A stretch of 64,000 bases of DNA, from NCBI RefSeq assembly GCF_030384885.1, contig NZ_CP128613.1. One strand, given 5' to 3'. Of this stretch, positions 24,173 to 60,229 are shown one piece after another. A model generated the notes under the pieces. The model worked only from the letters and a program-made list of their open reading frames with translations. It did no database searches and was not told the origin of the DNA. Numbering within the stretch: the stretch's first letter is position 1; every line of letters begins with the position of its first letter. Origin of the DNA: Escherichia coli. GTDB lineage: Bacteria; Pseudomonadota; Gammaproteobacteria; Enterobacterales; Enterobacteriaceae. The translations under genes and the position numbers were made by a program.

Positions 24173-25186
24173 TTAAAATAGCATTTGAGTCAAATAGCCC
24201 ATCAAGATAGCCATACCTAAGATAACCGTCAGGAATGCAACTATCATCGGTATTCTGAACATTGATTTAAGTAATATCACTTCCGTCAGACTTGCGCCGG
24301 CACTGCCGATGATTAATGCCATTAATGCTCCCAGACCCATTCCTTTTGTCATCAGAACAGATGCCAGAGGGATAACCGCCTCTGCCCGGATATACAGCGG
24401 GATTCCGACAACGGCGCTCAATGGGATGGCGAAGGGATTATCTGCCCCTGCATGAGCGGCAATCCACGCTGAGGGAATAAAGCCATAAATAAAAGAGCCT
24501 ATTAATACCCCTAACAAAAGATATGGCAGTACATCTTTAAACTGTTGCAACGCATCTTTGGTGGCTAGTTTTATGGGATTAATACTTACCACAGCTTTGG
24601 TACTGCAACAGTTTACTACCGGTTTCTCAATGGCTTTAGCCGCTGGACTACAGCAACTCACTTTTATTGGCGTATATGTCGTCCCCGGCGAAGTTTTGGC
24701 TGGAGAGCAACAATTTGCTGATGAGCTTTTACTGGCAATGATATGACGTTCAAATCTCAGAGAATCCAGGATAATACTGGCAAGTACGGAGACGCCGGCG
24801 GCGATAATCGCGTACAACAAGGTAACTTTCCAACCAAAGGTCACCCACATTAACCCGACGATAATGGGATTAAGTAACGGTGAAACAAATAAAAAAGTGA
24901 GAGTCGGACCAAACCCGGCTTTCGCTGACAACAATCCACGTAGCATGGGTATTGTCGAGCAACTACAGAACGGGGTAACGGCTCCCAACAGAGCAGCCAG
25001 GAGATAGCCTCTCCCTTTTCTGGCCCCCATCATCTGCTGGATTTTATGGTCTGGCACCTTTTGTCTTATCAGGCTGACACCGGCACTAATCACCATAAAC
25101 AGCAAAGAAAGCTCGACGGCGAGAAACACAAACATCTCTGCGGCATCTTGCAGCATCGCAAGCCAACTACTCATAAGTAACCTCAT
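24173..25186 (-). CDS. ArsP-like permease (DUF318-type) with TPFCSCS motif and a Cys-rich loop
   Basis: 337-aa multi-TM ORF; motif AVTPFCSCSTIP; hydrophilic loop with three CC pairs (NCCSP, VSCCSP, VNCCS); divergent from an ArsR-family gene. Confidence 0.75.
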   Translation of the reverse strand: MRLLMSSWLAMLQDAAEMFVFLAVELSLLFMVISAGVSLIRQKVPDHKIQQMMGARKGRGYLLAALLGAVTPFCSCSTIPMLRGLLSAKAGFGPTLTFLFVSPLLNPIIVGLMWVTFGWKVTLLYAIIAAGVSVLASIILDSLRFERHIIASKSSSANCCSPAKTSPGTTYTPIKVSCCSPAAKAIEKPVVNCCSTKAVVSINPIKLATKDALQQFKDVLPYLLLGVLIGSFIYGFIPSAWIAAHAGADNPFAIPLSAVVGIPLYIRAEAVIPLASVLMTKGMGLGALMALIIGSAGASLTEVILLKSMFRIPMIVAFLTVILGMAILMGYLTQMLF

Positions 25187-25196
25187 TGAATAAAAC

Positions 25197-25256
25197 TATA
25201 TTTCCAGAATAATCGAAATGAAGTTCAGATCAAGATATTTCTGGTATTATCGAAAT
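25197..25256. promoter_or_regulatory. candidate operator: two about 23-bp direct repeats in the divergent permease / ArsR-like promoter region
   Basis: TATATTTCCAGAATAATCGAAAT (25197-25219) and GATATTTCTGGTATTATCGAAAT (25234-25256). Confidence 0.35.
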
Positions 25257-25281
25257 ATCAACCAGACAGAGGGGGTGACAC

Positions 25282-25602
25282 ATGCAATTGGAAGAGGTCG
25301 CTAAGGCACTGAAAGAGTTAGGTCATCCGACCCGTTTGTTCATATTTAAGCATCTGGTCAAAGCGGGGGAACAAGGGTTGCCGGTCGGTGAGTTGCAAAA
25401 GCAGCTTGGGATACCCGGCTCTACACTCAGTCACCATATTTCAGCACTGGTATCGGTAGGGTTGGTCAAACAAAACCGTGAGAGTCGGACGCTGATGTGT
25501 GTTTCGCAATACGCAATGCTGGAAGCGATAATTGAATTTTTATGTGAGGAGTGCTGCGTAAACAGCAAAACAGATGGCGAAGGAGCCACGAAGAACAAAT
25601 AA
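25282..25602 (+). CDS. ArsR/SmtB-family metalloregulator with C-terminal Cys cluster
   Basis: 106-aa ORF; winged-helix HTH (VGELQKQLGIPGSTLSHHISALVSVGLV); C-terminal FLCEECC. Confidence 0.8.
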   Translation: MQLEEVAKALKELGHPTRLFIFKHLVKAGEQGLPVGELQKQLGIPGSTLSHHISALVSVGLVKQNRESRTLMCVSQYAMLEAIIEFLCEECCVNSKTDGEGATKNK

Positions 25603-25622
25603 GGGGGCATATCCCCCTATAG

Positions 25623-26048
25623 TTATTTCAGGCGTTTACCCGCTTCATCAACCACTTTTTCGCCATCTTCCTTGGTGAACGCGCCTTGTTGCGCATCTGG
25701 CAGAATTTCCAGCACCACTTCTGAAGGGCGGCACAGGCGAGTTCCTAGCGGCGTCACCACAATCGGGCGATTAATCAGAATCGGGTGCTGAAGCATAAAG
25801 TCGATTAACCGATCGTCAGTAAATTTATCTTCTGCAAGGCCCAGTTCCTCATACGGCTCGACGTTTTTACGCAACAGCGCGCGTACGGAAATCCCCATAT
25901 CGGCAATGAGTTTGACCAGCTCATCGCGCGTTGGCGGTGTTTCCAGATAATAGATAATGGTCGGTTCTGTACCGCTGTTGCGGATCATCTCCAGCGTATT
26001 ACGCGACGTGCCGCAGGCCGGGTTGTGATAAATAGTAATGTTGCTCAT
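25623..26048 (-). CDS. arsC: arsenate reductase (glutaredoxin-coupled)
   Basis: 141-aa ORF, catalytic Cys in HNPACGTSR. Confidence 0.95.
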   Translation of the reverse strand: MSNITIYHNPACGTSRNTLEMIRNSGTEPTIIYYLETPPTRDELVKLIADMGISVRALLRKNVEPYEELGLAEDKFTDDRLIDFMLQHPILINRPIVVTPLGTRLCRPSEVVLEILPDAQQGAFTKEDGEKVVDEAGKRLK

Positions 26049-45679: not shown

Positions 45680-46747
45680 ATGGATAAGAGTAAGCGCCAT
45701 CTGGCGTGGTGGGTTGTCGGGTTACTGGCAGTGGTTGCTGTCGTGGCATGGTGGCTGTTGCGCCCGGCAGGTGTGCCGGAAGGCTTTGCCGTCAGCAATG
45801 GGCGTATTGAAGCGACAGAAGTGGATATCGCCAGCAAAATTGCCGGGCGTATCGACACCATTCTGGTGAAAGAAGGCCAGTTTGTTCGTGAAGGTGAAGT
45901 ATTGGCGAAGATGGATACTCGCGTGTTGCAGGAACAGCGACTGGAAGCCATCGCGCAAATCAAAGAGGCACAAAGCGCAGTTGCCGCCGCGCAGGCTTTG
46001 CTGGAGCAACGGCAAAGCGAAACTCGCGCCGCACAGTCGCTGGTTAATCAACGCCAGGCAGAACTGGACTCCGTGGCTAAACGTCATACGCGTTCCCGCT
46101 CACTCGCCCAACGAGGGGCTATTTCTGCGCAACAGCTGGACGACGACCGCGCCGCTGCTGAAAGCGCCCGTGCTGCGCTGGAATCGGCAAAAGCCCAGGT
46201 TTCGGCTTCTAAAGCGGCTATAGAAGCGGCACGTACCAATATCATTCAGGCGCAAACGCGCGTCGAAGCGGCACAAGCCACTGAGCGGCGCATTGCCGCA
46301 GATATCGATGATAGTGAACTGAAAGCCCCGCGTGACGGACGCGTGCAGTATCGGGTTGCTGAACCAGGCGAAGTGCTGGCAGCAGGCGGTCGGGTGCTGA
46401 ATATGGTCGATCTCAGCGACGTCTATATGACCTTCTTCCTGCCAACCGAACAGGCGGGCACGCTGAAACTGGGCGGTGAAGCACGGCTAATCCTCGATGC
46501 CGCGCCAGATCTGCGTATTCCGGCGACCATCAGTTTTGTCGCCAGCGTCGCCCAGTTCACGCCAAAAACTGTCGAAACCAGCGATGAACGACTGAAACTG
46601 ATGTTCCGCGTCAAAGCGCGTATCCCACCGGAATTACTCCAGCAACATCTGGAATATGTCAAAACCGGATTGCCGGGCGTAGCGTGGGTGCGGGTGAACG
46701 AAGAACTTCCGTGGCCTGACGACCTTGCGGTGAGGTTGCCGCAATGA
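45680..46747 (+). CDS. yhiI: HlyD-family membrane fusion protein
   Basis: 355-aa product from internal ATG; N-terminal TM then coiled-coil-rich periplasmic domain; stop overlaps rbbA start (ATGA). Confidence 0.88.
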
Positions 46748-49479
46748 CGCATCTGGAACTGGTTCCCGTCCCGCCTGTCGCGCAACTGGCGGGCGTGAGC
46801 CAGCATTATGGAAAAACCGTTGCGCTGAACAATATCACTCTCGATATTCCGGCCCGCTGCATGGTCGGGCTGATTGGCCCGGACGGCGTTGGGAAGTCGA
46901 GTTTGTTGTCACTGATTTCCGGTGCCCGCGTCATTGAGCAGGGCAACGTGATCGTGCTGGGCGGCGATATGCGCGACCCGAGGCATCGCCGTGACGTCTG
47001 CCCGCGCATTGCCTGGATGCCGCAGGGACTGGGCAAAAACCTCTACCACACCTTGTCGGTGTATGAAAACGTCGATTTTTTCGCCCGCCTGTTCGGTCAC
47101 GACAAAGCGGAGCGGGAAGTCCGAATTAATGAGCTGCTGACCAGCACCGGGTTAGCACCGTTTCGCGATCGTCCGGCAGGTAAACTCTCCGGCGGGATGA
47201 AGCAAAAGCTGGGGCTGTGCTGTGCGTTAATCCACGACCCGGAATTGTTGATTCTTGATGAGCCAACAACGGGGGTTGACCCGCTCTCTCGCGCCCAGTT
47301 CTGGGATCTGATCGACAGTATTCGCCAGCGGCAGAGCAATATGAGCGTGCTGGTTGCCACCGCCTATATGGAAGAGGCGGAACGCTTCGACTGGCTGGTA
47401 GCGATGAATGCCGGAGAAGTACTGGCGACTGGCAGCGCCGAAGAACTGCGGCAGCAAACGCAAAGCGCCACGCTGGAAGAAGCATTTATAAATCTGTTAC
47501 CGCAAGCACAACGGCAGGCGCATCAGGCGGTAGTGATCCCACCGTATCAACCTGAAAACGCAGAGATTGCCATCGAAGCGCGCGATCTGACCATGCGTTT
47601 TGGTTCCTTCGTTGCCGTTGATCACGTCAATTTCCGCATTCCACGCGGGGAGATTTTTGGCTTCCTCGGTTCGAACGGCTGCGGTAAATCCACCACCATG
47701 AAAATGCTTACCGGACTGCTGCCTGCCAGCGAAGGTGAGGCGTGGCTGTTCGGGCAACCGGTTGATCCAAAAGATATCGATACTCGCCGTCGGGTGGGCT
47801 ATATGTCGCAGGCGTTTTCGCTCTATAACGAACTCACCGTGCGGCAAAACCTGGAGTTACATGCCCGTTTGTTTCACATTCCGGAAGCGGAAATTCCCGC
47901 GCGAGTGGCTGAAATGAGTGAGCGTTTTAAGCTCAACGACGTTGAAGATGTTCTGCCGGAGTCATTGCCGCTCGGCATTCGCCAGCGGCTTTCGCTGGCG
48001 GTGGCGGTGATTCATCGCCCGGAGATGTTAATCCTCGATGAGCCAACTTCTGGCGTCGATCCGGTGGCGAGGGATATGTTCTGGCAGTTAATGGTCGATC
48101 TTTCGCGCCAGGACAAAGTGACCATTTTCATCTCCACCCACTTTATGAACGAAGCGGAACGCTGCGACCGCATCTCACTAATGCACGCCGGAAAAGTGCT
48201 TGCCAGCGGTACCCCGCAGGAACTGGTTGAGAAACGCGGAGCCGCCAGTCTGGAAGAGGCATTTATCGCCTATTTGCAGGAAGCGGCAGGGCAGAGCAAC
48301 GAAGCCGAAGCGCCGCCTGTGGTACATGACACCACCCACGCGCCGCGTCAGGGATTTAGCCTGCGACGTCTGTTTAGCTACAGCCGTCGCGAAGCACTGG
48401 AACTGCGCCGCGATCCGGTACGTTCGACGCTGGCGCTGATGGGAACGGTGATCCTGATGCTGATAATGGGTTACGGCATCAGTATGGATGTGGAAAATCT
48501 GCGCTTTGCGGTGCTCGACCGTGACCAGACCGTCAGTAGCCAGGCGTGGACGCTCAATCTCTCCGGTTCCCGTTACTTTATCGAGCAGCCGCCGCTCACC
48601 AGTTATGACGAGCTTGATCGCCGGATGCGTGCGGGCGATATCACCGTGGCTATTGAAATCCCACCCAATTTCGGGCGCGATATCGCGCGGGGTACGCCCG
48701 TGGAACTCGGTGTCTGGATCGACGGTGCGATGCCGAGTCGCGCCGAAACGGTAAAAGGTTACGTGCAGGCCATGCACCAGAGCTGGCTACAGGATGTGGC
48801 GAGTCGGCAATCCACGCCCGCGAGCCAAAGCGGGCTGATGAATATTGAGACACGCTATCGCTATAACCCGGACGTAAAAAGCCTGCCAGCGATTGTTCCG
48901 GCGGTGATCCCGCTGTTGCTGATGATGATTCCGTCGATGTTAAGCGCCCTTAGCGTAGTGCGGGAAAAAGAGTTGGGGTCGATTATCAACCTTTACGTGA
49001 CTCCTACCACCCGTAGCGAATTTTTGCTTGGCAAACAGCTACCGTACATCGGGCTGGGAATGCTGAACTTTTTCCTGCTCTGCGCCCTGTCGGTGTTTGT
49101 GTTTGGCGTGCCGCATAAAGGCAGTTTCCTGACGCTCACCCTGGCGGCGCTGCTGTATATCATCATTGCCACCGGAATGGGGCTGCTGCTCTCTACTTTT
49201 ATGAAAAGCCAGATTGCCGCCATTTTCGGTACGGCGATTATCACGTTGATTCCGGCGACACAGTTTTCCGGGATGATCGATCCGGTAGCTTCGCTGGAAG
49301 GTCCGGGACGTTGGATCGGCGAGGTTTACCCGACCAGTCATTTTCTGACTATCGCCCGCGGGACGTTCTCGAAGGCGCTGGATCTGACTGATTTGTGGCA
49401 ACTTTTTATCCCGTTGCTGATAGCCATTCCACTGGTGATGGGCTTAAGCATCCTGCTGCTGAAAAAACAGGAGGGATGA
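46744..49479 (+). CDS. rbbA: fused ABC ATPase(x2)-permease, ribosome-associated ATPase RbbA
   Basis: 911-aa ORF with two Walker A motifs ([18 protein letters not shown]), two LSGG signature motifs and a C-terminal ABC-2 permease domain. Confidence 0.92.
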
Positions 49480-50603
49480 TGCGCCATTTACGCAATATTT
49501 TTAATCTGGGTATCAAAGAGTTGCGCAGTCTGCTCGGTGATAAAGCGATGCTGACGTTGATTGTCTTCTCGTTTACAGTGTCGGTGTATTCGTCAGCGAC
49601 CGTCACGCCAGGATCATTGAACCTCGCGCCGATCGCCATTGCCGATATGGATCAATCGCAGTTATCGAACCGGATCGTTAACAGCTTCTATCGCCCGTGG
49701 TTTTTGCCACCGGAGATGATCACCGCCGATGAGATGGATGCCGGGCTGGACGCCGGGCGCTATACCTTCGCGATAAATATTCCGCCTAATTTTCAGCGTG
49801 ATGTCCTCGCCGGACGCCAGCCGGATATTCAGGTGAATGTCGATGCCACGCGCATGAGCCAGGCATTCACTGGCAACGGTTATATCCAGAATATTATCAA
49901 CGGTGAAGTGAACAGCTTTGTCGCGCGCTACCGTGATAACAGCGAACCGTTGGTATCGCTGGAAACCCGCATGCGCTTTAACCCGAACCTCGATCCCGCA
50001 TGGTTTGGCGGGGTGATGGCGATCATCAACAACATTACCATGCTGGCGATTGTGCTGACCGGATCGGCGCTGATCCGCGAGCGTGAACACGGCACGGTGG
50101 AACACTTACTGGTGATGCCGATAACGCCGTTTGAGATCATGATGGCGAAGGTCTGGTCGATGGGGCTGGTGGTGCTGGTGGTATCGGGATTATCGCTGGT
50201 GCTGATGGTAAAAGGCGTGCTGGGCGTACCGATTGAAGGCTCGATCCCGCTGTTTATGCTTGGCGTGGCGCTCAGTCTGTTTGCCACTACGTCAATCGGT
50301 ATTTTTATGGGGACGATAGCGCGTTCGATGCCACAACTGGGGCTGTTGGTGATTCTGGTGCTGCTGCCGCTGCAAATGCTTTCTGGTGGATCCACGCCGC
50401 GCGAAAGTATGCCGCAGATGGTGCAGGACATTATGCTGACCATGCCGACGACACACTTTGTCAGCCTCGCGCAGGCCATCCTCTACCGGGGTGCCGGATT
50501 CGAAATCGTCTGGCCGCAGTTCCTGACGTTGATGGCAATTGGCGGCGCGTTTTTCACCATCGCGCTGCTGCGATTCAGGAAGACGATTGGGACAATGGCG
50601 TAA
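49479..50603 (+). CDS. yhhJ: ABC-2 family permease
   Basis: 374-aa product from the ATG overlapping the rbbA stop (gATGAtg); multi-TM. Confidence 0.85.
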   Translation: MRHLRNIFNLGIKELRSLLGDKAMLTLIVFSFTVSVYSSATVTPGSLNLAPIAIADMDQSQLSNRIVNSFYRPWFLPPEMITADEMDAGLDAGRYTFAINIPPNFQRDVLAGRQPDIQVNVDATRMSQAFTGNGYIQNIINGEVNSFVARYRDNSEPLVSLETRMRFNPNLDPAWFGGVMAIINNITMLAIVLTGSALIREREHGTVEHLLVMPITPFEIMMAKVWSMGLVVLVVSGLSLVLMVKGVLGVPIEGSIPLFMLGVALSLFATTSIGIFMGTIARSMPQLGLLVILVLLPLQMLSGGSTPRESMPQMVQDIMLTMPTTHFVSLAQAILYRGAGFEIVWPQFLTLMAIGGAFFTIALLRFRKTIGTMA

Positions 50604-50611
50604 TTACGGGC

Positions 50612-53414
<2,803 letters not shown>

Positions 53415-53418
<4 letters not shown>

Positions 53419-54359
53419 GCGTGCGCTCCTTCATGACGACGAATGCGCGGGTCCAGCGCGGCGTTGAGCAAATCGACAATCAAATTACAGACCACAAAAA
53501 CCACCACCATCATCAGCGTAAAGCATTGGATCACCGGATAGTCACGGTTGAAAATCGCCGACACCGCATAGCGCCCGACGCCCGGCCAGGCAAAGATGTT
53601 TTCGATAATCATCGTCCCGCCAATCAGTTCGCCAATGTGCATCCCCACGGCGGTGATCATCGGCAGCGAGGCATTGCGCAGGATATGGCGGCGTTCGGTC
53701 TGTTTGTCGTTCAGGCCGCGCAGTCGCGCCCAGGTCACATGACGCTGACCCGCGACGTCCAGCATACTGGCGCGCAGCAGACGCGCGTTAATCGCCAGCG
53801 ACATAAAAGCGATGGAAACCGCAGGCAAAATGATATGCTGCCAGCCGCCGTAACCCATCGCGGGCAGCCATTGCAGATACACTGAAAATGCCATCACCAG
53901 TAAAAACGCCAACCAGAAGTTAGGCATCGACACGCCAAGAAACGCGATAATACGCACGGCGAAATCCGGCAGGCGGTCGCGATGGCGCGCCGCCCAGATG
54001 CCGAGCGGCACGGAAGTGAGCAGAATTAACACTAGCGCCGCGCCCGCCAGTTCCAGCGTGGCGGGTAGGAAGGTCAGCATATCGTCCAGCACCGGGCGTT
54101 GGCTGGCGAATGAGATACCAAAGTCAAGATGCAGCGCTTTCCACAACCAGGTTCCGTACTGCACGTACAACGGCTGATCCAGCCCCAGCATGGTGCGGGT
54201 AGAAGCCAGCATTTCCGGCGTCGGCGGCAGGTTAGACAGACGCAGATAATCGAGCGCAGGGTCACCGGTGCCGAGGCGCAGCATCAGAAAAATGATCACC
54301 GAGGCGGCGAGCACCATCGGGATCAGCAGCAGAAAGCGGCGTAATACATAACGCAACAT
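53415..54359 (-). CDS. nikB: nickel ABC transporter permease
   Basis: 314-aa multi-TM ORF. Confidence 0.93.
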
Positions 54360-55933
54360 TAAGGTTTCACCGGTTTAATTTGTTCGAACGGGATTTCGGT
54401 GGCGATCGGCGCGTAGGGGATGTTACCCAGTTCCGGTTTTGAAACCACCATCATTGAGATATAGCTGATGGGCAGATAAACCGCCTCGTCATGCAGACGG
54501 GTCAGAATGTCGCGATACAGTGCCTGACGTTGTGTTTCGTCGTGTGTCGCCAGCACTTCGCCAATCTCTTTATCAATCAGTGGCTTGTCGGCTAAACCTT
54601 GCTGTGCCTGGAAGTCAGCGTGCGACGGTACGCGCATTGAACTCAGGAAGGCGTGTGGATCGTATGGCGCGCCCCAGGTACGGTGGAAAATCATGCCAAA
54701 ACGACCGTCGCGCTGACGAGCATAGATACTGCTCTCTTCTTCGCCGATCAGCGTGACATCCGCGCCAATCTGGCGCATATCAGCCTGAATGATTTCGGCC
54801 ATTGATTTGCTTAACGCATCGGTGCCGATGAACGACAGTTCAATGCGCAGCGGCTGACCATTTTTCTCGCGGATGTCTTTGCCTGCGGGCAGCGTCCAGC
54901 CTGCTTGTTCCAGCAACGCTTTCGCTTTCTGCGGATCGTACTGGCGCGGTTTCAGGCCGAGATTGGCATAGGGCACGGAAGGGGCAAACAGGGTGTCGGC
55001 GACCTGCTGGGTGCCATACAACGCGTTATCGATCAGCGATTTTTTGTTTACCGCGTAATTGAGAGCTTCACGTACGGCCAACTCGTTGGTGGGGGCTTTT
55101 GCAGTATTGAGCGCCAGCATCACGGTTTCGATCGGCTGTGACAGTTGGGTGTGGTAAGCCGGGTTCTGGCTAAAGTGGGCGAAGGTATCGAGCGGTAATA
55201 GCCCTTCATTACCGTATAGCAGATCGATATCGCCGGTTTCAAACGCCACCGCGCGGGTGGTCGGGTCCGGGATCACGTTAAAAGTGATCTTTTTAATCGC
55301 CGACTTTTCGCCCCAGTAGTTTTCGTTACGGACGAAGACATCGTATTGATTCAGTTTCGATTCCTGCAAAACCCACGGCCCGGTGCCAATCGGCGCTTTA
55401 ATCCCGTTCATGGTTTCATTATTTTTAAACTGCGAGGGGGCGATAAAGCGGAAAGGACGGGGCAGGGCCAGTTCTTGCAGGAAAGGGTAGTAGGCGCTTT
55501 TCAGGGTGATTTGCAGCTCGGTTTTACTGAGAGCTTTGACATCAACAATCTGGTTTGCCAGCTCCAGCCAGGCGTGACGTTGACGGTTGTCGAGCACAGC
55601 GCGGAAGTTTTCTGCCGCGGCCTCTGCATCAAACGGTTCACCGTTAGAGAATTTCACATCATCACGCAGGGTGAAGGTCCAGGTTTTGCCATCTTCTGAA
55701 TGGGTCCAGCTTTTTGCCAGCCACGGGCTCACCGAGCCATCTGCCTGATATTTCACCAGTGGTTCATAAACCATGCTCTGGGCGAACATCTGGTTGGGTG
55801 TGTAAAGGTGCGGGTTTAGTGGCCCGACATTCACCGGCCAGGCGGTGGTGATTTCATCTGGTGCAGCGGCATGGACGATAAAAGACGCACAAGCCAGCAG
55901 CGCAAATAGAGTGCGGCGGAGTGTGGAGAGCAT
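54359..55933 (-). CDS. nikA: periplasmic nickel-binding protein
   Basis: 524-aa ORF with signal peptide, family-5 solute-binding protein. Confidence 0.93.
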
Positions 55934-55970
55934 GGTAACCCCAATGGATTAAAATAGATGGCGGAAATAA

Positions 55971-55998
55971 GTATGACGATTTTAAATATTCGTCATAC
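55971..55998. promoter_or_regulatory. NikR operator GTATGA-N16-TCATAC upstream of nikA
   Basis: Exact GTATGAcgattttaaatattcgTCATAC dyad about 40 bp upstream of nikA start. Confidence 0.75.
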
Positions 55999-56043
55999 TG
56001 ATAACCTGTTCTGGATCAATAGATGGGCAGTCGGATAGGCTGA

Positions 56044-56631
56044 TCAGTTAATTGAATCGATCCATTGCACACTGTCGGCGGTGAGCGTAAAGGGAGTAGG
56101 GGTGCAGATCGCCAGACTTAAATTTTCAAGCTGACAATGGCTGACTGACAGCGAGGACTGATAGGTGCTGTCTACGCTGACGATTTGCCAGGCGCTGCCG
56201 CCACGTTGTTTAACGATGGCTTCTTTGCGTGTCCAGATGCGCCAGAACATTTCCAGTTGCTGATCTGGATGCACGGCGTCCATCTCGGCATGTTCTCCGA
56301 GGCTGAACACCGCGTTCGCCAGCCAGCGCCAGTTGGCACGCGGGCGAATCACTTCGATATCGCAGCCGACTTCGCCCTCATCGCTCAACAGTAGGGCAAT
56401 ATCGTCACCGCTATGGCTTAAGTTGAACCATAGCGGCGTTTCCGGCGCGAATGCAGGTTTGCCTTGTTCGCCATAGATGATCTCCGGTAGCGGGGAAAGC
56501 GTGTGTGAAAGCAATGCACGCCCCGCCAGCCAGCGTTCGCGCCGTGGGCCTTGCGGTGCTTGCTCGCGCAAAGCCGGTGGCAGTGGAGCTGCGCTTAAGG
56601 TCGAAACTTTCCCCAGAACTATCCGATACAT
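56044..56631 (-). CDS. acpT: 4'-phosphopantetheinyl transferase (holo-ACP synthase 2)
   Basis: 195-aa ORF, Sfp/EntD-type PPTase; start codon 1 nt from upstream KS stop. Confidence 0.9.
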   Translation of the reverse strand: MYRIVLGKVSTLSAAPLPPALREQAPQGPRRERWLAGRALLSHTLSPLPEIIYGEQGKPAFAPETPLWFNLSHSGDDIALLLSDEGEVGCDIEVIRPRANWRWLANAVFSLGEHAEMDAVHPDQQLEMFWRIWTRKEAIVKQRGGSAWQIVSVDSTYQSSLSVSHCQLENLSLAICTPTPFTLTADSVQWIDSIN

Positions 56632-56632
56632 A

Positions 56633-57862
56633 TCAGGGCCAACGTTTTATGATGATGGATGTATTAATGCCGCCAAAGGCAAAGTTGTTACTCTGCAAAA
56701 ACTCACAATCAATCTTGCGCGCTTCATGCATGATGTAATCCAGCTCGCCACAGTTAGGGTCTGGTTTATTCAGGTTTAGCGTAGGCGCAAACCAGCCTTC
56801 TCGCATCATTTGCAGACTCATCCAGGCTTCGAGCGCGCCACAGGCACCAAGCGTATGACCAAAATAACTTTTCAGCGAGGAGAGCGGCACATTATCACCG
56901 TAAATGGTTGCTGTCGCCAGACTTTCTGCCACATCACCACGATCGGTCGCCGTACCATGCGCCGAAATATAGCCGATATCACTTGCACTTAACCCGGCGA
57001 TTTTTAACGATTTTTCCATACAATATTGCATGGTCTCACGCTGAGGCTGGGTAATATGTGCCGCGTCGCAGTTGGTGGCAAAGCCAACGATTTCACCGTA
57101 AATGGTCGCGCCGCGCGCTTTGGCGTGCTCCAGTTCTTCGAGAATCAGCGTGCCTGCGCCTTCGCCAATCACCAGCCCGTCGCGGTTTTCATCGAACGGT
57201 GAAGGGGTGGTTTTCGGCGCGTCATTATGCTGGCTGGTGGCGAAAAGCGTATCAAATACCGCCGCTTCTGAAGGGCATAACTCTTCGGCGCCACCAGCAA
57301 CCATCACCGTTTGATAACCGTGACGAATGGCTTCCCACGCATAACCGATCGCCTGGCTGCCGGAGGTACAGGCGCTGGAGGTTGGGATCACCCGTCCGCG
57401 CAGGCCAAAAAATAGCCCGGTATTAACGGCGGTGGTGTGCGGCATCATCTGCACATAGGTGGTGCCAGTGATGTTGTTCGTGTGCTTTTCCGTCAGCATG
57501 GTGGCGAACTCGCTCACCGGACCGGTACTGCCGGTCGATGAACCGTACGCAATGCCCGTTTCACCGCTGGTTAATATCGGATCGCCAATCAACCCTGCCT
57601 GCTCTAACGCCAGCTCGCTGGCTCGGGTCGACATTTGCGACACGCGGCCCATCGCACGGATACGCTTGCGGGTGTAGTGCTCCGGTAGTGTGAAATCATC
57701 AATCGGCGCGCCAAGCAGGGTGTGCAGACCATCGTAGACCTGCCACTCCGGCATTTTGCGTACTGCATTCTCATACGCCAGCAGGCGCGCGGAAACGTCC
57801 TGCCAGTTTTCACCAAAGGCAGTCACGCCGCCCATTCCTGTAATTACCACGCGACGTGTCAT
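56633..57862 (-). CDS. beta-ketoacyl-ACP synthase (FabB/FabF-like; apeR-position KS)
   Basis: 409-aa ORF; active-site Cys in SSACTSGS, His motifs in SAHGTATDRGD and FGHTLGACG. Confidence 0.85.
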   Translation of the reverse strand: MTRRVVITGMGGVTAFGENWQDVSARLLAYENAVRKMPEWQVYDGLHTLLGAPIDDFTLPEHYTRKRIRAMGRVSQMSTRASELALEQAGLIGDPILTSGETGIAYGSSTGSTGPVSEFATMLTEKHTNNITGTTYVQMMPHTTAVNTGLFFGLRGRVIPTSSACTSGSQAIGYAWEAIRHGYQTVMVAGGAEELCPSEAAVFDTLFATSQHNDAPKTTPSPFDENRDGLVIGEGAGTLILEELEHAKARGATIYGEIVGFATNCDAAHITQPQRETMQYCMEKSLKIAGLSASDIGYISAHGTATDRGDVAESLATATIYGDNVPLSSLKSYFGHTLGACGALEAWMSLQMMREGWFAPTLNLNKPDPNCGELDYIMHEARKIDCEFLQSNNFAFGGINTSIIIKRWP

Positions 57863-58590
57863 AACATCCCTCCGTTGATGGAAATAACCTGGCGGGTGAC
57901 GTAACCCGCAATATCAGACATTAAATAGCTGGCAAGCCCGGCAACTTCTTCCGCCTGGCCCATGCGTTTCATGGGGATCATCGACATTGCCTCTTTCAGA
58001 GCGCTCTCTTCCATTTCGATCATCCCGGTATCAATAAGCCCCGGCGCGATGCAGTTGACGGTGATTTTGCGCTTCGCGAGTTCGATAGCCAGTGCTTTTG
58101 TTGCGCCGATAATTCCGGCTTTGGCAGCGCTGTAGTTCACCTGGCCGCGATTGCCCATTACGCCGGAAACCGAGGACAGCGTGATGATGCGTCCACCCTG
58201 GCGTGCGCCGATCATCGGCATAATGCACGGCTGAATGACGTTGTAGAAACTGTCGAGGTTGGTGTGGATCACCGCATCCCAGTCGTCATCGCTTAAAGCC
58301 GGAAAAGCGGCATCGCGGGCGATCCCGGCGTTACTAACCACGCCGTACCAGGCACCGTGTTGCGCGATCTCGTGCTCCAGCACTTCCCGACACTGTTCGC
58401 GGTTTGCGACGTCGAAACTGAGCAAACGCCCGTTACCACCGTTGGCGACAATGGTATTCAGCGTTTCCTGAGCGCCTGTGGCGTCACGGTGATAGTGAAC
58501 GCCAATATTAAAGCCGTCTGCCGCCAGTTGGCAGGCGATGGCGCGACCAATGCCTTTGCTGGCACCAGTAACCAGAACTGAACGACTCAT
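57859..58590 (-). CDS. 3-oxoacyl-ACP reductase (SDR, FabG-like; apeQ-position)
   Basis: 243-aa ORF; Rossmann TGASKGIGRA, SDR catalytic YSAAK. Confidence 0.88.
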   Translation of the reverse strand: MSRSVLVTGASKGIGRAIACQLAADGFNIGVHYHRDATGAQETLNTIVANGGNGRLLSFDVANREQCREVLEHEIAQHGAWYGVVSNAGIARDAAFPALSDDDWDAVIHTNLDSFYNVIQPCIMPMIGARQGGRIITLSSVSGVMGNRGQVNYSAAKAGIIGATKALAIELAKRKITVNCIAPGLIDTGMIEMEESALKEAMSMIPMKRMGQAEEVAGLASYLMSDIAGYVTRQVISINGGML

Positions 58591-59054
58591 CAGGACGCTC
58601 CTTGTTGAAACAGGGTGGTAAGTTCTTCCGCGGTCGGCTGGAAGGTGTTAATGCGGCCCGTTGCCTCGCCGTCGTTGATGCTGCACTCAAAACTACCGAA
58701 GCGTTCATCTTGCATCAGCAGTTTGACGGTAATGGTCAGCGTCTGGCCTGCGGGCAGAATGCCAGCGGCGCAAAGCAATTCACGCGCGCCCAGTACCATC
58801 CCTAACTCAATACTGTTTTTGCCCTGCTGGTGGCGATGCCAGCCAGACCAGACGCCGACGGTTTGCGCCATCAGTTCAAGGGCAAACCAGCCAGGGAGAT
58901 TGCCGTCCGGGTCGAGAAACGGTGCCAGTACACCACTGGGCGAAACCGTCACGCGGCACACGGCGCTGTCATCGCTGACGCTCACCACTTCTTCCAGCAG
59001 CAACATGGGCGCATCGTGGGGCAGATAAGCGCCGGGTGATAAATAGTGGCTCAC
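58590..59054 (-). CDS. hotdog-fold 3-hydroxyacyl-ACP dehydratase (FabA/FabZ-like; apeP-position)
   Basis: 154-aa ORF, hotdog dehydratase-like, translationally coupled to neighbours. Confidence 0.75.
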   Translation of the reverse strand: MSHYLSPGAYLPHDAPMLLLEEVVSVSDDSAVCRVTVSPSGVLAPFLDPDGNLPGWFALELMAQTVGVWSGWHRHQQGKNSIELGMVLGARELLCAAGILPAGQTLTITVKLLMQDERFGSFECSINDGEATGRINTFQPTAEELTTLFQQGAS

Positions 59055-60229
59055 GAAACCCTCCCGAGCAGAATGCTGGCGTTATTGCCGCCAAAGGCGA
59101 AGGAATTGGACAGGATCACCGGACGTGCCAGCGGCTGTGGTTTTTCGATAATGCCGCACGGTGGCAGCGTGGGATCGCGTGGCGACAGGCTGAAGTCCTG
59201 AGCGGGCAGCGGTAAATCACGCTGTAAGATCAACATACTGATTGCCGCCTCGGTAATGCCCGCCGCGCCCAGCGTGTGTCCGGTCAAATGTTTGGTGGAG
59301 CTGCACGGTACGCGTTCGCCAAACAGGGCGTTAACCACTATTGATTCAATCTGGTCGTTGAGTTGTGTGGCGGTGCCGTGCAGGTTGATATAGCCGACGT
59401 CATCTGGCGTAAGCTGCGCATCGGTCAGCGCCTGGTTAATAGCGCGGATTGCCCCTTCGCCCTGCGGATGCGGGGCCGAAATATGGTAAGCGTCGCTCGA
59501 TTCACCAACGCCCAGTAACGCGATGGGCTGCGGTTCACGGGTCAGCAGCATTAGCCCCGCGCCTTCGCCAATGGTGATGCCCGCACGGTCACGACCAAAC
59601 GGCTGACATAAGGTTGGCGACAGCGATTCGAGGCTGTGAAAACCGTTAATTGGCATCCGGCTCAGGGTGTCTGCGCCACCCACAATGGCGGCATCGACCA
59701 GCCCCGCTTCGATAAGCCTGCGCCCGCTGATCATCGCTCTGGCGCTGGAAGAGCAGGCGGTTGAAAGAGTATATGCCGGGCCGTCGAGCGCCAGCCAGTG
59801 GCTGAGAAAACGCGACGGATCGCCGAGTTCCTGCTGCGCGTAGTGCCATGTGGTGCTTGGCTGCCCGTGGGTGCGCAGGTTAACGTGCGTGTCGCCTTCA
59901 TGCAGGCCGGAGGTGCTGGTGCCAAGCACAATCGCAATGCGCTCGCGGCCATATTTTGCGATGGCGTCATCAACCTGCGGCTGGATCTGCGCCAGCGCCG
60001 CCAGCAGGATCTGATTGTTGCGCGAGCGGTGCGCAGCGAATTTTTCCGGGATAAGCGGAAGCTCGCCATCCACGCCAGCCAGGACCGCCTGCGGATGCCC
60101 CTGCAACCAGCCTGCGCGTGGGCGCATTCCGGGAGCAACACCGCGAGTCAGGTTGGCTGCGATCTCATCAAGATTATTTCCCAGGGCGTTGATCATGCCA
60201 ACGGCGGAAATATAAATCATATTAGTCAC
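59051..60229 (-). CDS. beta-ketoacyl-ACP synthase (apeO-position KS)
   Basis: 392-aa ORF; thiolase fold, Cys in STACSSSARAM, HGTATQLND, GHTLGAAG. Confidence 0.85.
   Translation of the reverse strand: MTNMIYISAVGMINALGNNLDEIAANLTRGVAPGMRPRAGWLQGHPQAVLAGVDGELPLIPEKFAAHRSRNNQILLAALAQIQPQVDDAIAKYGRERIAIVLGTSTSGLHEGDTHVNLRTHGQPSTTWHYAQQELGDPSRFLSHWLALDGPAYTLSTACSSSARAMISGRRLIEAGLVDAAIVGGADTLSRMPINGFHSLESLSPTLCQPFGRDRAGITIGEGAGLMLLTREPQPIALLGVGESSDAYHISAPHPQGEGAIRAINQALTDAQLTPDDVGYINLHGTATQLNDQIESIVVNALFGERVPCSSTKHLTGHTLGAAGITEAAISMLILQRDLPLPAQDFSLSPRDPTLPPCGIIEKPQPLARPVILSNSFAFGGNNASILLGRVS

Follow-up and report, generated by a model that had tools for sequence, protein, structure and literature searches.

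Variable loci that lack an integrase and lie between Escherichia coli core genes, often called hotspots, have reportedly been described by Touchon et al. 2009 and Oliveira et al. 2017. The site between yhhJ and nikR resembles these loci in that it holds unrelated cargo within sharp and invariant boundaries, with no tRNA gene and no integrase. The same site is known as rhs position 9, which is defined by nikR/yhhJ in Table 3 of Jackson et al. 2009 (BMC Genomics 10:584; PMC2935791). These authors traced position 9 to one origin, in the lineage of K-12, HS and ATCC8739. In K-12 the RhsB locus consists of an rhs core, a C-terminal tip, the immunity gene yhhH and the ISAs1/H-repeat transposase yhhI. 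The 64-kb stretch of DNA analyzed here (the window) shares the flanking genes, their converging orientation and the chromosomal position with this locus, but it contains none of the RhsB components. The genes of the window at this junction are the following.

46744 to 49479, plus strand: rbbA, ribosome-associated ATPase / ABC transporter component (911-aa open reading frame, upstream of yhhJ)
49479 to 50603, plus strand: yhhJ, ABC transporter permease (374 aa, ending ...FRKTIGTMA; TAA stop at 50601-50603)
50604 to 50611, no strand: spacer TTACGGGC, the 8 bp between the two stop codons and the unoccupied island site
50612 to 51013, minus strand: nikR, nickel-responsive repressor (133 aa; TAA stop at 50612-50614)
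51018 to 51824, minus strand: nikE, last transporter gene of nikABCDE (from the list of open reading frames)

The plus strand at 50592-50620 reads ACAATGGCGTAA, then the spacer TTACGGGC, then TTAATCTTC, with yhhJ and nikR converging on the spacer. Bases 50604-50611 were read directly, and the stop-to-stop gap of 8 bp given in a preliminary description of this DNA is exact. The neighboring genes are readily identified: rbbA is collinear with its annotated counterpart in strain 2013C-4282, yhhJ matches the yhhJ annotations of both 2013C-4282 and MG1655, and the NikR proteins of several Escherichia species are 100% identical to the one encoded here. The nikABCDE operon extends to about 55933 and is collinear from nikE to nikA with the 2013C-4282 annotation. 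The spacer itself is free of REP sequence and too short to form a hairpin. A terminator and promoter scan of 50200-51100 placed no such site within the 8 bp, and the single weak terminator-like match in that interval lies antisense in nikR, 200 bp from the spacer, and is at chance level. An Rfam search of 49000-52000 at permissive thresholds gave zero matches, and ARAGORN detected no tRNA in 45000-57000. Since only 8 bp without a hairpin separate the two genes, the yhhJ and nikR transcripts presumably end within the coding region of the opposite gene.

Comparison with K-12 located the difference precisely. In MG1655, nikR ends at 3,618,989 and yhhJ at 3,625,679, and rhsB, yhhH, the pseudogene yrhC and yhhI lie between them, as the preliminary description states. 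A local blastn alignment of the window with MG1655 was unbroken on both sides of a single break at window positions 50607/50614 (positions 15676/8988 of the MG1655 locus, L001), where K-12 alone carries about 6.69 kb of DNA; K-12 thus does not have the same tight junction. The absence of RhsB was confirmed for the whole window: tblastn of MG1655 RhsB against the 64 kb gave no match at E<=1e-3, tblastn of YhhH and YhhI gave nothing, and the only blastn match to the 6.7-kb K-12 block was an 87-bp REP-like stretch near 37 kb. Homologues of the HicA/B proteins and of the PTS-island proteins, which occupy the site in other strains, were likewise not found within the 64 kb. The junction in the window therefore has no feature of an Rhs element of the RhsB type and is an unoccupied rhs position 9.

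Other departures from K-12 that had been pointed out in this DNA are also real. An uninterrupted 407-aa open reading frame corresponds to yhiS (22369-23592, minus strand), which is split by IS5 in K-12, and one of 535 aa to yhiL (41823-43430, plus strand), which is a pseudogene in K-12. The yhiS homologue of the close relative 2013C-4282 is annotated as frameshifted. The extra islands comprise a 1.7-kb segment at 23911-25623 and a cluster of the aryl-polyene type from 56651. The former lies between yhiS and arsC and has no MG1655 counterpart; its equivalent in 2013C-4282 is annotated as a permease and an ArsR/SmtB-family regulator. The latter follows acpT, covers 56651-64000 of the window, is absent from MG1655 and is also found in strain 123. 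The 2013C-4282 annotation of this region lists ketoacyl-ACP synthases, FabG2, ApeP/ApeI dehydratases, an MMPL transporter, a LolA-like protein and glycosyltransferase genes, a predicted gene set with the pattern of an aryl-polyene-type cluster.

The background of the window is not merely non-K-12. Throughout its 64 kb the window is collinear with 2013C-4282 at 99.2-99.3% identity, and its identity to MG1655 is 95.0-96.4% over the full length, with the housekeeping genes gor and prlC included. None of the genomes in the complete-genome collection matches the window identically. Strain 2013C-4282 is among the complete genomes of Escherichia cryptic clade I in Okuno et al. 2023 (PMC10100065), in which genomes of clade I had an average nucleotide identity (ANI) of >98.3% to one another and of >95.9% to E. 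coli sensu stricto. These two identity ranges assign the window to cryptic clade I and not to its sister lineage, E. coli sensu stricto, as judged from the 64 kb and not from whole-genome ANI. The description of this DNA as non-K-12 was accordingly true but understated. The absence of RhsB, which had been offered as a marker of that background, is undiagnostic: RhsB is missing from the site in 61% of complete E. coli genomes.

This figure comes from a census in which junction-specific megablast queries were run against 5,426 complete E. coli genomes, of which 5,425 gave a match. The empty state was queried with 208 bp across the yhhJ-nikR junction. The counts, each out of 5,425, were as follows.

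Empty (yhhJ-nikR query): 165 (3%)
hicAB only (hicB-nikR query): 1,491 (27%)
hicAB adjoining yhhJ, in any combination (yhhJ-hicA query): 2,073
PTS island adjoining nikR, with or without hicAB (GntR-nikR query): 1,635 (30%)
RhsB (rhsB-nikR query): 2,115 (39%)
RhsB (yhhI-yhhJ query): 2,113

Subtraction of 1,491 from 2,073 leaves about 582 genomes that carry hicAB and the PTS island together. The site therefore has five states (empty, hicAB, PTS, hicAB plus PTS, and RhsB), and the mutually exclusive counts of 165, 1,491, 1,635 and 2,115 add up to 5,406 of the 5,425 genomes. Unlike the mere absence of RhsB, a fully empty junction is uncommon. The frequency of RhsB also differs from the picture of Jackson et al. 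2009, in which position 9 is specific to the K-12/HS/ATCC8739 lineage, whereas RhsB occupies the site in 39% of the complete genomes here. The census also bears on the possibility that the tight junction is an artefact, produced by collapse of a repeat-rich Rhs region in the source assembly. Short-read assemblies can collapse Rhs cores, which exist in multiple copies. However, a collapse would leave partial Rhs sequence, of which the window has none, and the identical junction is present in 165 independently finished complete genomes, including the collinear 2013C-4282. On the strength of these finished genomes an artefact was rejected, its probability being close to nil.

Apart from one 81-bp stretch described below, the blocks that fill the site are mutually unrelated, and the composite state is simply the sum of hicAB and the PTS island. 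Their sizes are 0.8 kb for hicAB, 5.9 kb for the PTS island, 6.6 kb for the two together and 6.7 kb for RhsB. The hicAB toxin-antitoxin pair stands alone in NZ_CM135829.1 and in APEC 102026. The PTS island, a sugar-uptake island, stands alone in Ecol_AZ159, where it encodes a GntR regulator, PTS IIA/IIB/IIC, an FGGY kinase, an HPr-like protein and a class II aldolase; strain 123 carries both blocks. The name of the 'frz' operon of extraintestinal pathogenic E. coli (ExPEC) was considered for the PTS/aldolase island and set aside. The regulator and the kinase family of frz are presumably unlike those of this island. No flanking genes of frz are given in PMC12928451.

Two database entries that surfaced at this site deserve comment in their own right. 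NZ_CM135829.1, a 4.83-Mb sequence labelled 'DH5alpha', carries hicAB and not RhsB and is thus unlike a K-12 derivative at the site; the label is probably wrong. The metagenome-assembled genome 'Citrobacter sp. HRGM_Genome_0066' contains two contigs (L013 and L017) with an E. coli-like nikR whose protein is 100% identical; one contig has hicAB at the site and the other the PTS island. The bin seems to combine E. coli strains under a mistaken Citrobacter name.

For each of the cargo states, similarity to the empty allele ends within a few bases of both stop codons. Repeats common to the left and right junctions, or target-site duplications, were found in none of the states, and no integrase is annotated in the hicAB and PTS blocks. 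The sole mobility gene among the cargo is the ISAs1-family yhhI within the RhsB block. With tRNA, att-like repeats and integrase all absent, the site is not an insertion site of the integrase/tRNA type. Descriptively, it is a multi-allele variable locus between conserved core genes.

These observations are relevant to the earlier suggestion that the junction pinpoints an Rhs insertion hotspot. If the site were a dedicated target for Rhs elements, the window would represent a naive target. The site is indeed among the 11 catalogued rhs positions, and RhsB is its commonest single occupant (2,115 of 5,425 genomes). However, three Rhs-free cargo states have identical boundaries and jointly outnumber RhsB, a single origin was deduced for position 9 by Jackson et al. 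2009, and no target duplication is visible. Furthermore, an 81-bp REP-containing stretch beside yhhJ is common to the PTS-only and RhsB states, which indicates that RhsB entered an already elaborated spacer and not a bare 8-bp site. It is very unlikely that the site is a dedicated Rhs target. The suggestion was correct as to a catalogued rhs position and too narrow as to the cargo, given that hicAB, PTS and hicAB plus PTS share the boundaries and that only one Rhs type is found there.

The empty allele is not confined to the window and its close relative. The spacer TTACGGGC is found in 2013C-4282 (clade I) and also in RMDEC465, Z0117EC0005 and N96. It reads TTACGGGG in A0 34/86 and TTACGAAG in SCPM-O-B-8794, whose flanks are 93-94.5% identical to those of all others. 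The empty spacer thus occurs with lineage-specific SNPs in three backgrounds whose flanks are 3-7% apart. The flanks of A0 34/86 are closest to those of the PTS-carrying Ecol_AZ159 (yhhJ 99.1%, nikR 98.2%) and are not clade I-like, so its empty allele did not arrive recently from clade I. In a comparison of 11 genomes, flank identity and allele state showed no simple correspondence.

Outside E. coli, the site was surveyed with a NikR query in one genome per species, followed by local tblastn. The genes yhhJ and nikR converge and are adjacent in 12 Citrobacter loci and in Salmonella enterica subsp. diarizonae. The spacers of these outgroups measure 15-103 bp, with one exception of 471 bp, and mostly consist of REP-like palindromes. 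The exception, in Citrobacter amalonaticus AUH_CA_2023_1 (L024, 10403-10873), holds about five tandem REP/BIME-like units. In this respect the site recalls the REP/BIME spacers between converging enterobacterial genes, since REP-like palindromes are present in Citrobacter, in S. enterica subsp. diarizonae and in the yhhJ-proximal flank of the K-12 and PTS-only states, but the 8-bp spacer of the window differs in having no REP. Two Citrobacter spacers of 15 bp and 17 bp (L027 and L044) are also REP-free, so short empty spacers are not confined to Escherichia; that of L027 ends in GGGC, as does the spacer of the window.

Occupied alleles are likewise found beyond E. coli. Four other Escherichia (E. 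albertii, E. whittamii, Escherichia sp. E1V33 and Escherichia sp. MOD1-EC7003) and C. amalonaticus S646 carry the PTS island at the orthologous site, and C. sedlakii carries the hicAB pair; RhsB was not found at the site among the non-coli loci tested. In MOD1-EC7003 (L019, 10403-17779) the PTS island beside nikR is followed within about 300 bp by sequence aligning with window positions 40388-41663. By this alignment, the block of yhiL, yhiJ, yhiI, rbbA and yhhJ (window about 41663-50612) is missing there. The occurrence of the PTS island and hicAB at orthologous sites in Escherichia and Citrobacter indicates a polymorphism that is older than the species and crosses their boundaries, and it is here that the yhhJ-nikR site differs from the integrase-free hotspots of E. 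coli, the same PTS/hicAB polymorphism being present in other Escherichia and in Citrobacter. Both the empty and the occupied alleles are old. We are quite confident that the window derives from a clade I strain and that its 8-bp junction represents an old multi-allele locus between converging core genes in its unoccupied form.

The direction of change is a more delicate question. The empty allele matches the gene order of Citrobacter and S. enterica subsp. diarizonae and is taken as the ancestral arrangement; we lean towards its retention in the lineage of the window over a clean deletion of the PTS island. On the other hand, parsimony on the Escherichia species tree would make the PTS-occupied state ancestral and the empty state a deletion. 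The Escherichia ancestor would in that case have carried the PTS/aldolase island, and one old deletion would have taken the island together with the REP-containing spacer and left 8 bp. The deletion allele would have persisted in, or recombined into, clade I, strains like A0 34/86 and the lineage of SCPM-O-B-8794. Such a secondary loss agrees with the distribution of the PTS island, which four Escherichia species other than E. coli and 30% of E. coli genomes carry here. It also agrees with the nikR stop codon: the empty and PTS states share TAA, whereas the RhsB and hicAB-only states have TGA. Moreover, the PTS-state intergenic DNA begins and ends with ATAC...GGTG, and joining these 4-bp ends would yield TTACGGGC after two substitutions. 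However, this 6/8 match depends on a post hoc split, is weak (roughly 0.04 as an estimate) and fits either direction. Most Citrobacter species and S. enterica subsp. diarizonae are island-free with the two genes adjacent, and the short REP-free spacers of L027 and L044, the former with its GGGC end, also speak against the need for a deletion. Secondary loss is possible, although we consider it the less likely course, and ancestral emptiness remains our preferred reading. For RhsB, the flank on the yhhJ side, which is like that of the PTS-only state, the absence from the tested non-coli loci and the placement by Jackson et al. 2009 together indicate that it is a late arrival and the youngest occupant.

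The manner in which the alleles move can be approached from the same data. Whole alleles, the empty one included, would be exchanged or lost through homologous recombination in the conserved flanks, with rbbA-yhhJ on one side and the nik operon on the other, and not through site-specific integration. In view of the missing integration signatures and the sharp boundaries, flank recombination is the most likely mechanism of exchange. The nikR DNA is unusually diverse among genomes of E. coli sensu stricto, with identities down to 93%, which is suggestive of such exchange: MG1655 and Ecol_AZ159 are 93.8% identical over 400 bp, compared with 98.0% on the yhhJ side. Old or introgressed alleles beside the hotspot may have left this diversity behind. 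A more far-reaching and rather speculative extension, to which we give limited credence, is that the empty, hicAB and PTS alleles predate the split of Escherichia and Citrobacter and have been kept or repeatedly swapped in both genera ever since. In that case the diversity of nikR would reflect balanced or introgressed variation, and RhsB would have joined the locus recently, in E. coli.

The empty yhhJ-nikR junction is in itself ordinary and already known. Given the lineage assignment by Jackson et al. 2009, the absence of RhsB from a non-K-12 genome is expected and was already published. The additions made here are modest and consist of an allele census of the site and the cross-species distribution of its cargo. 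The yhhJ-nikR site is a convenient integrase-free locus for studying island swaps by flank recombination, and PCR typing across it is possible as a simple marker.
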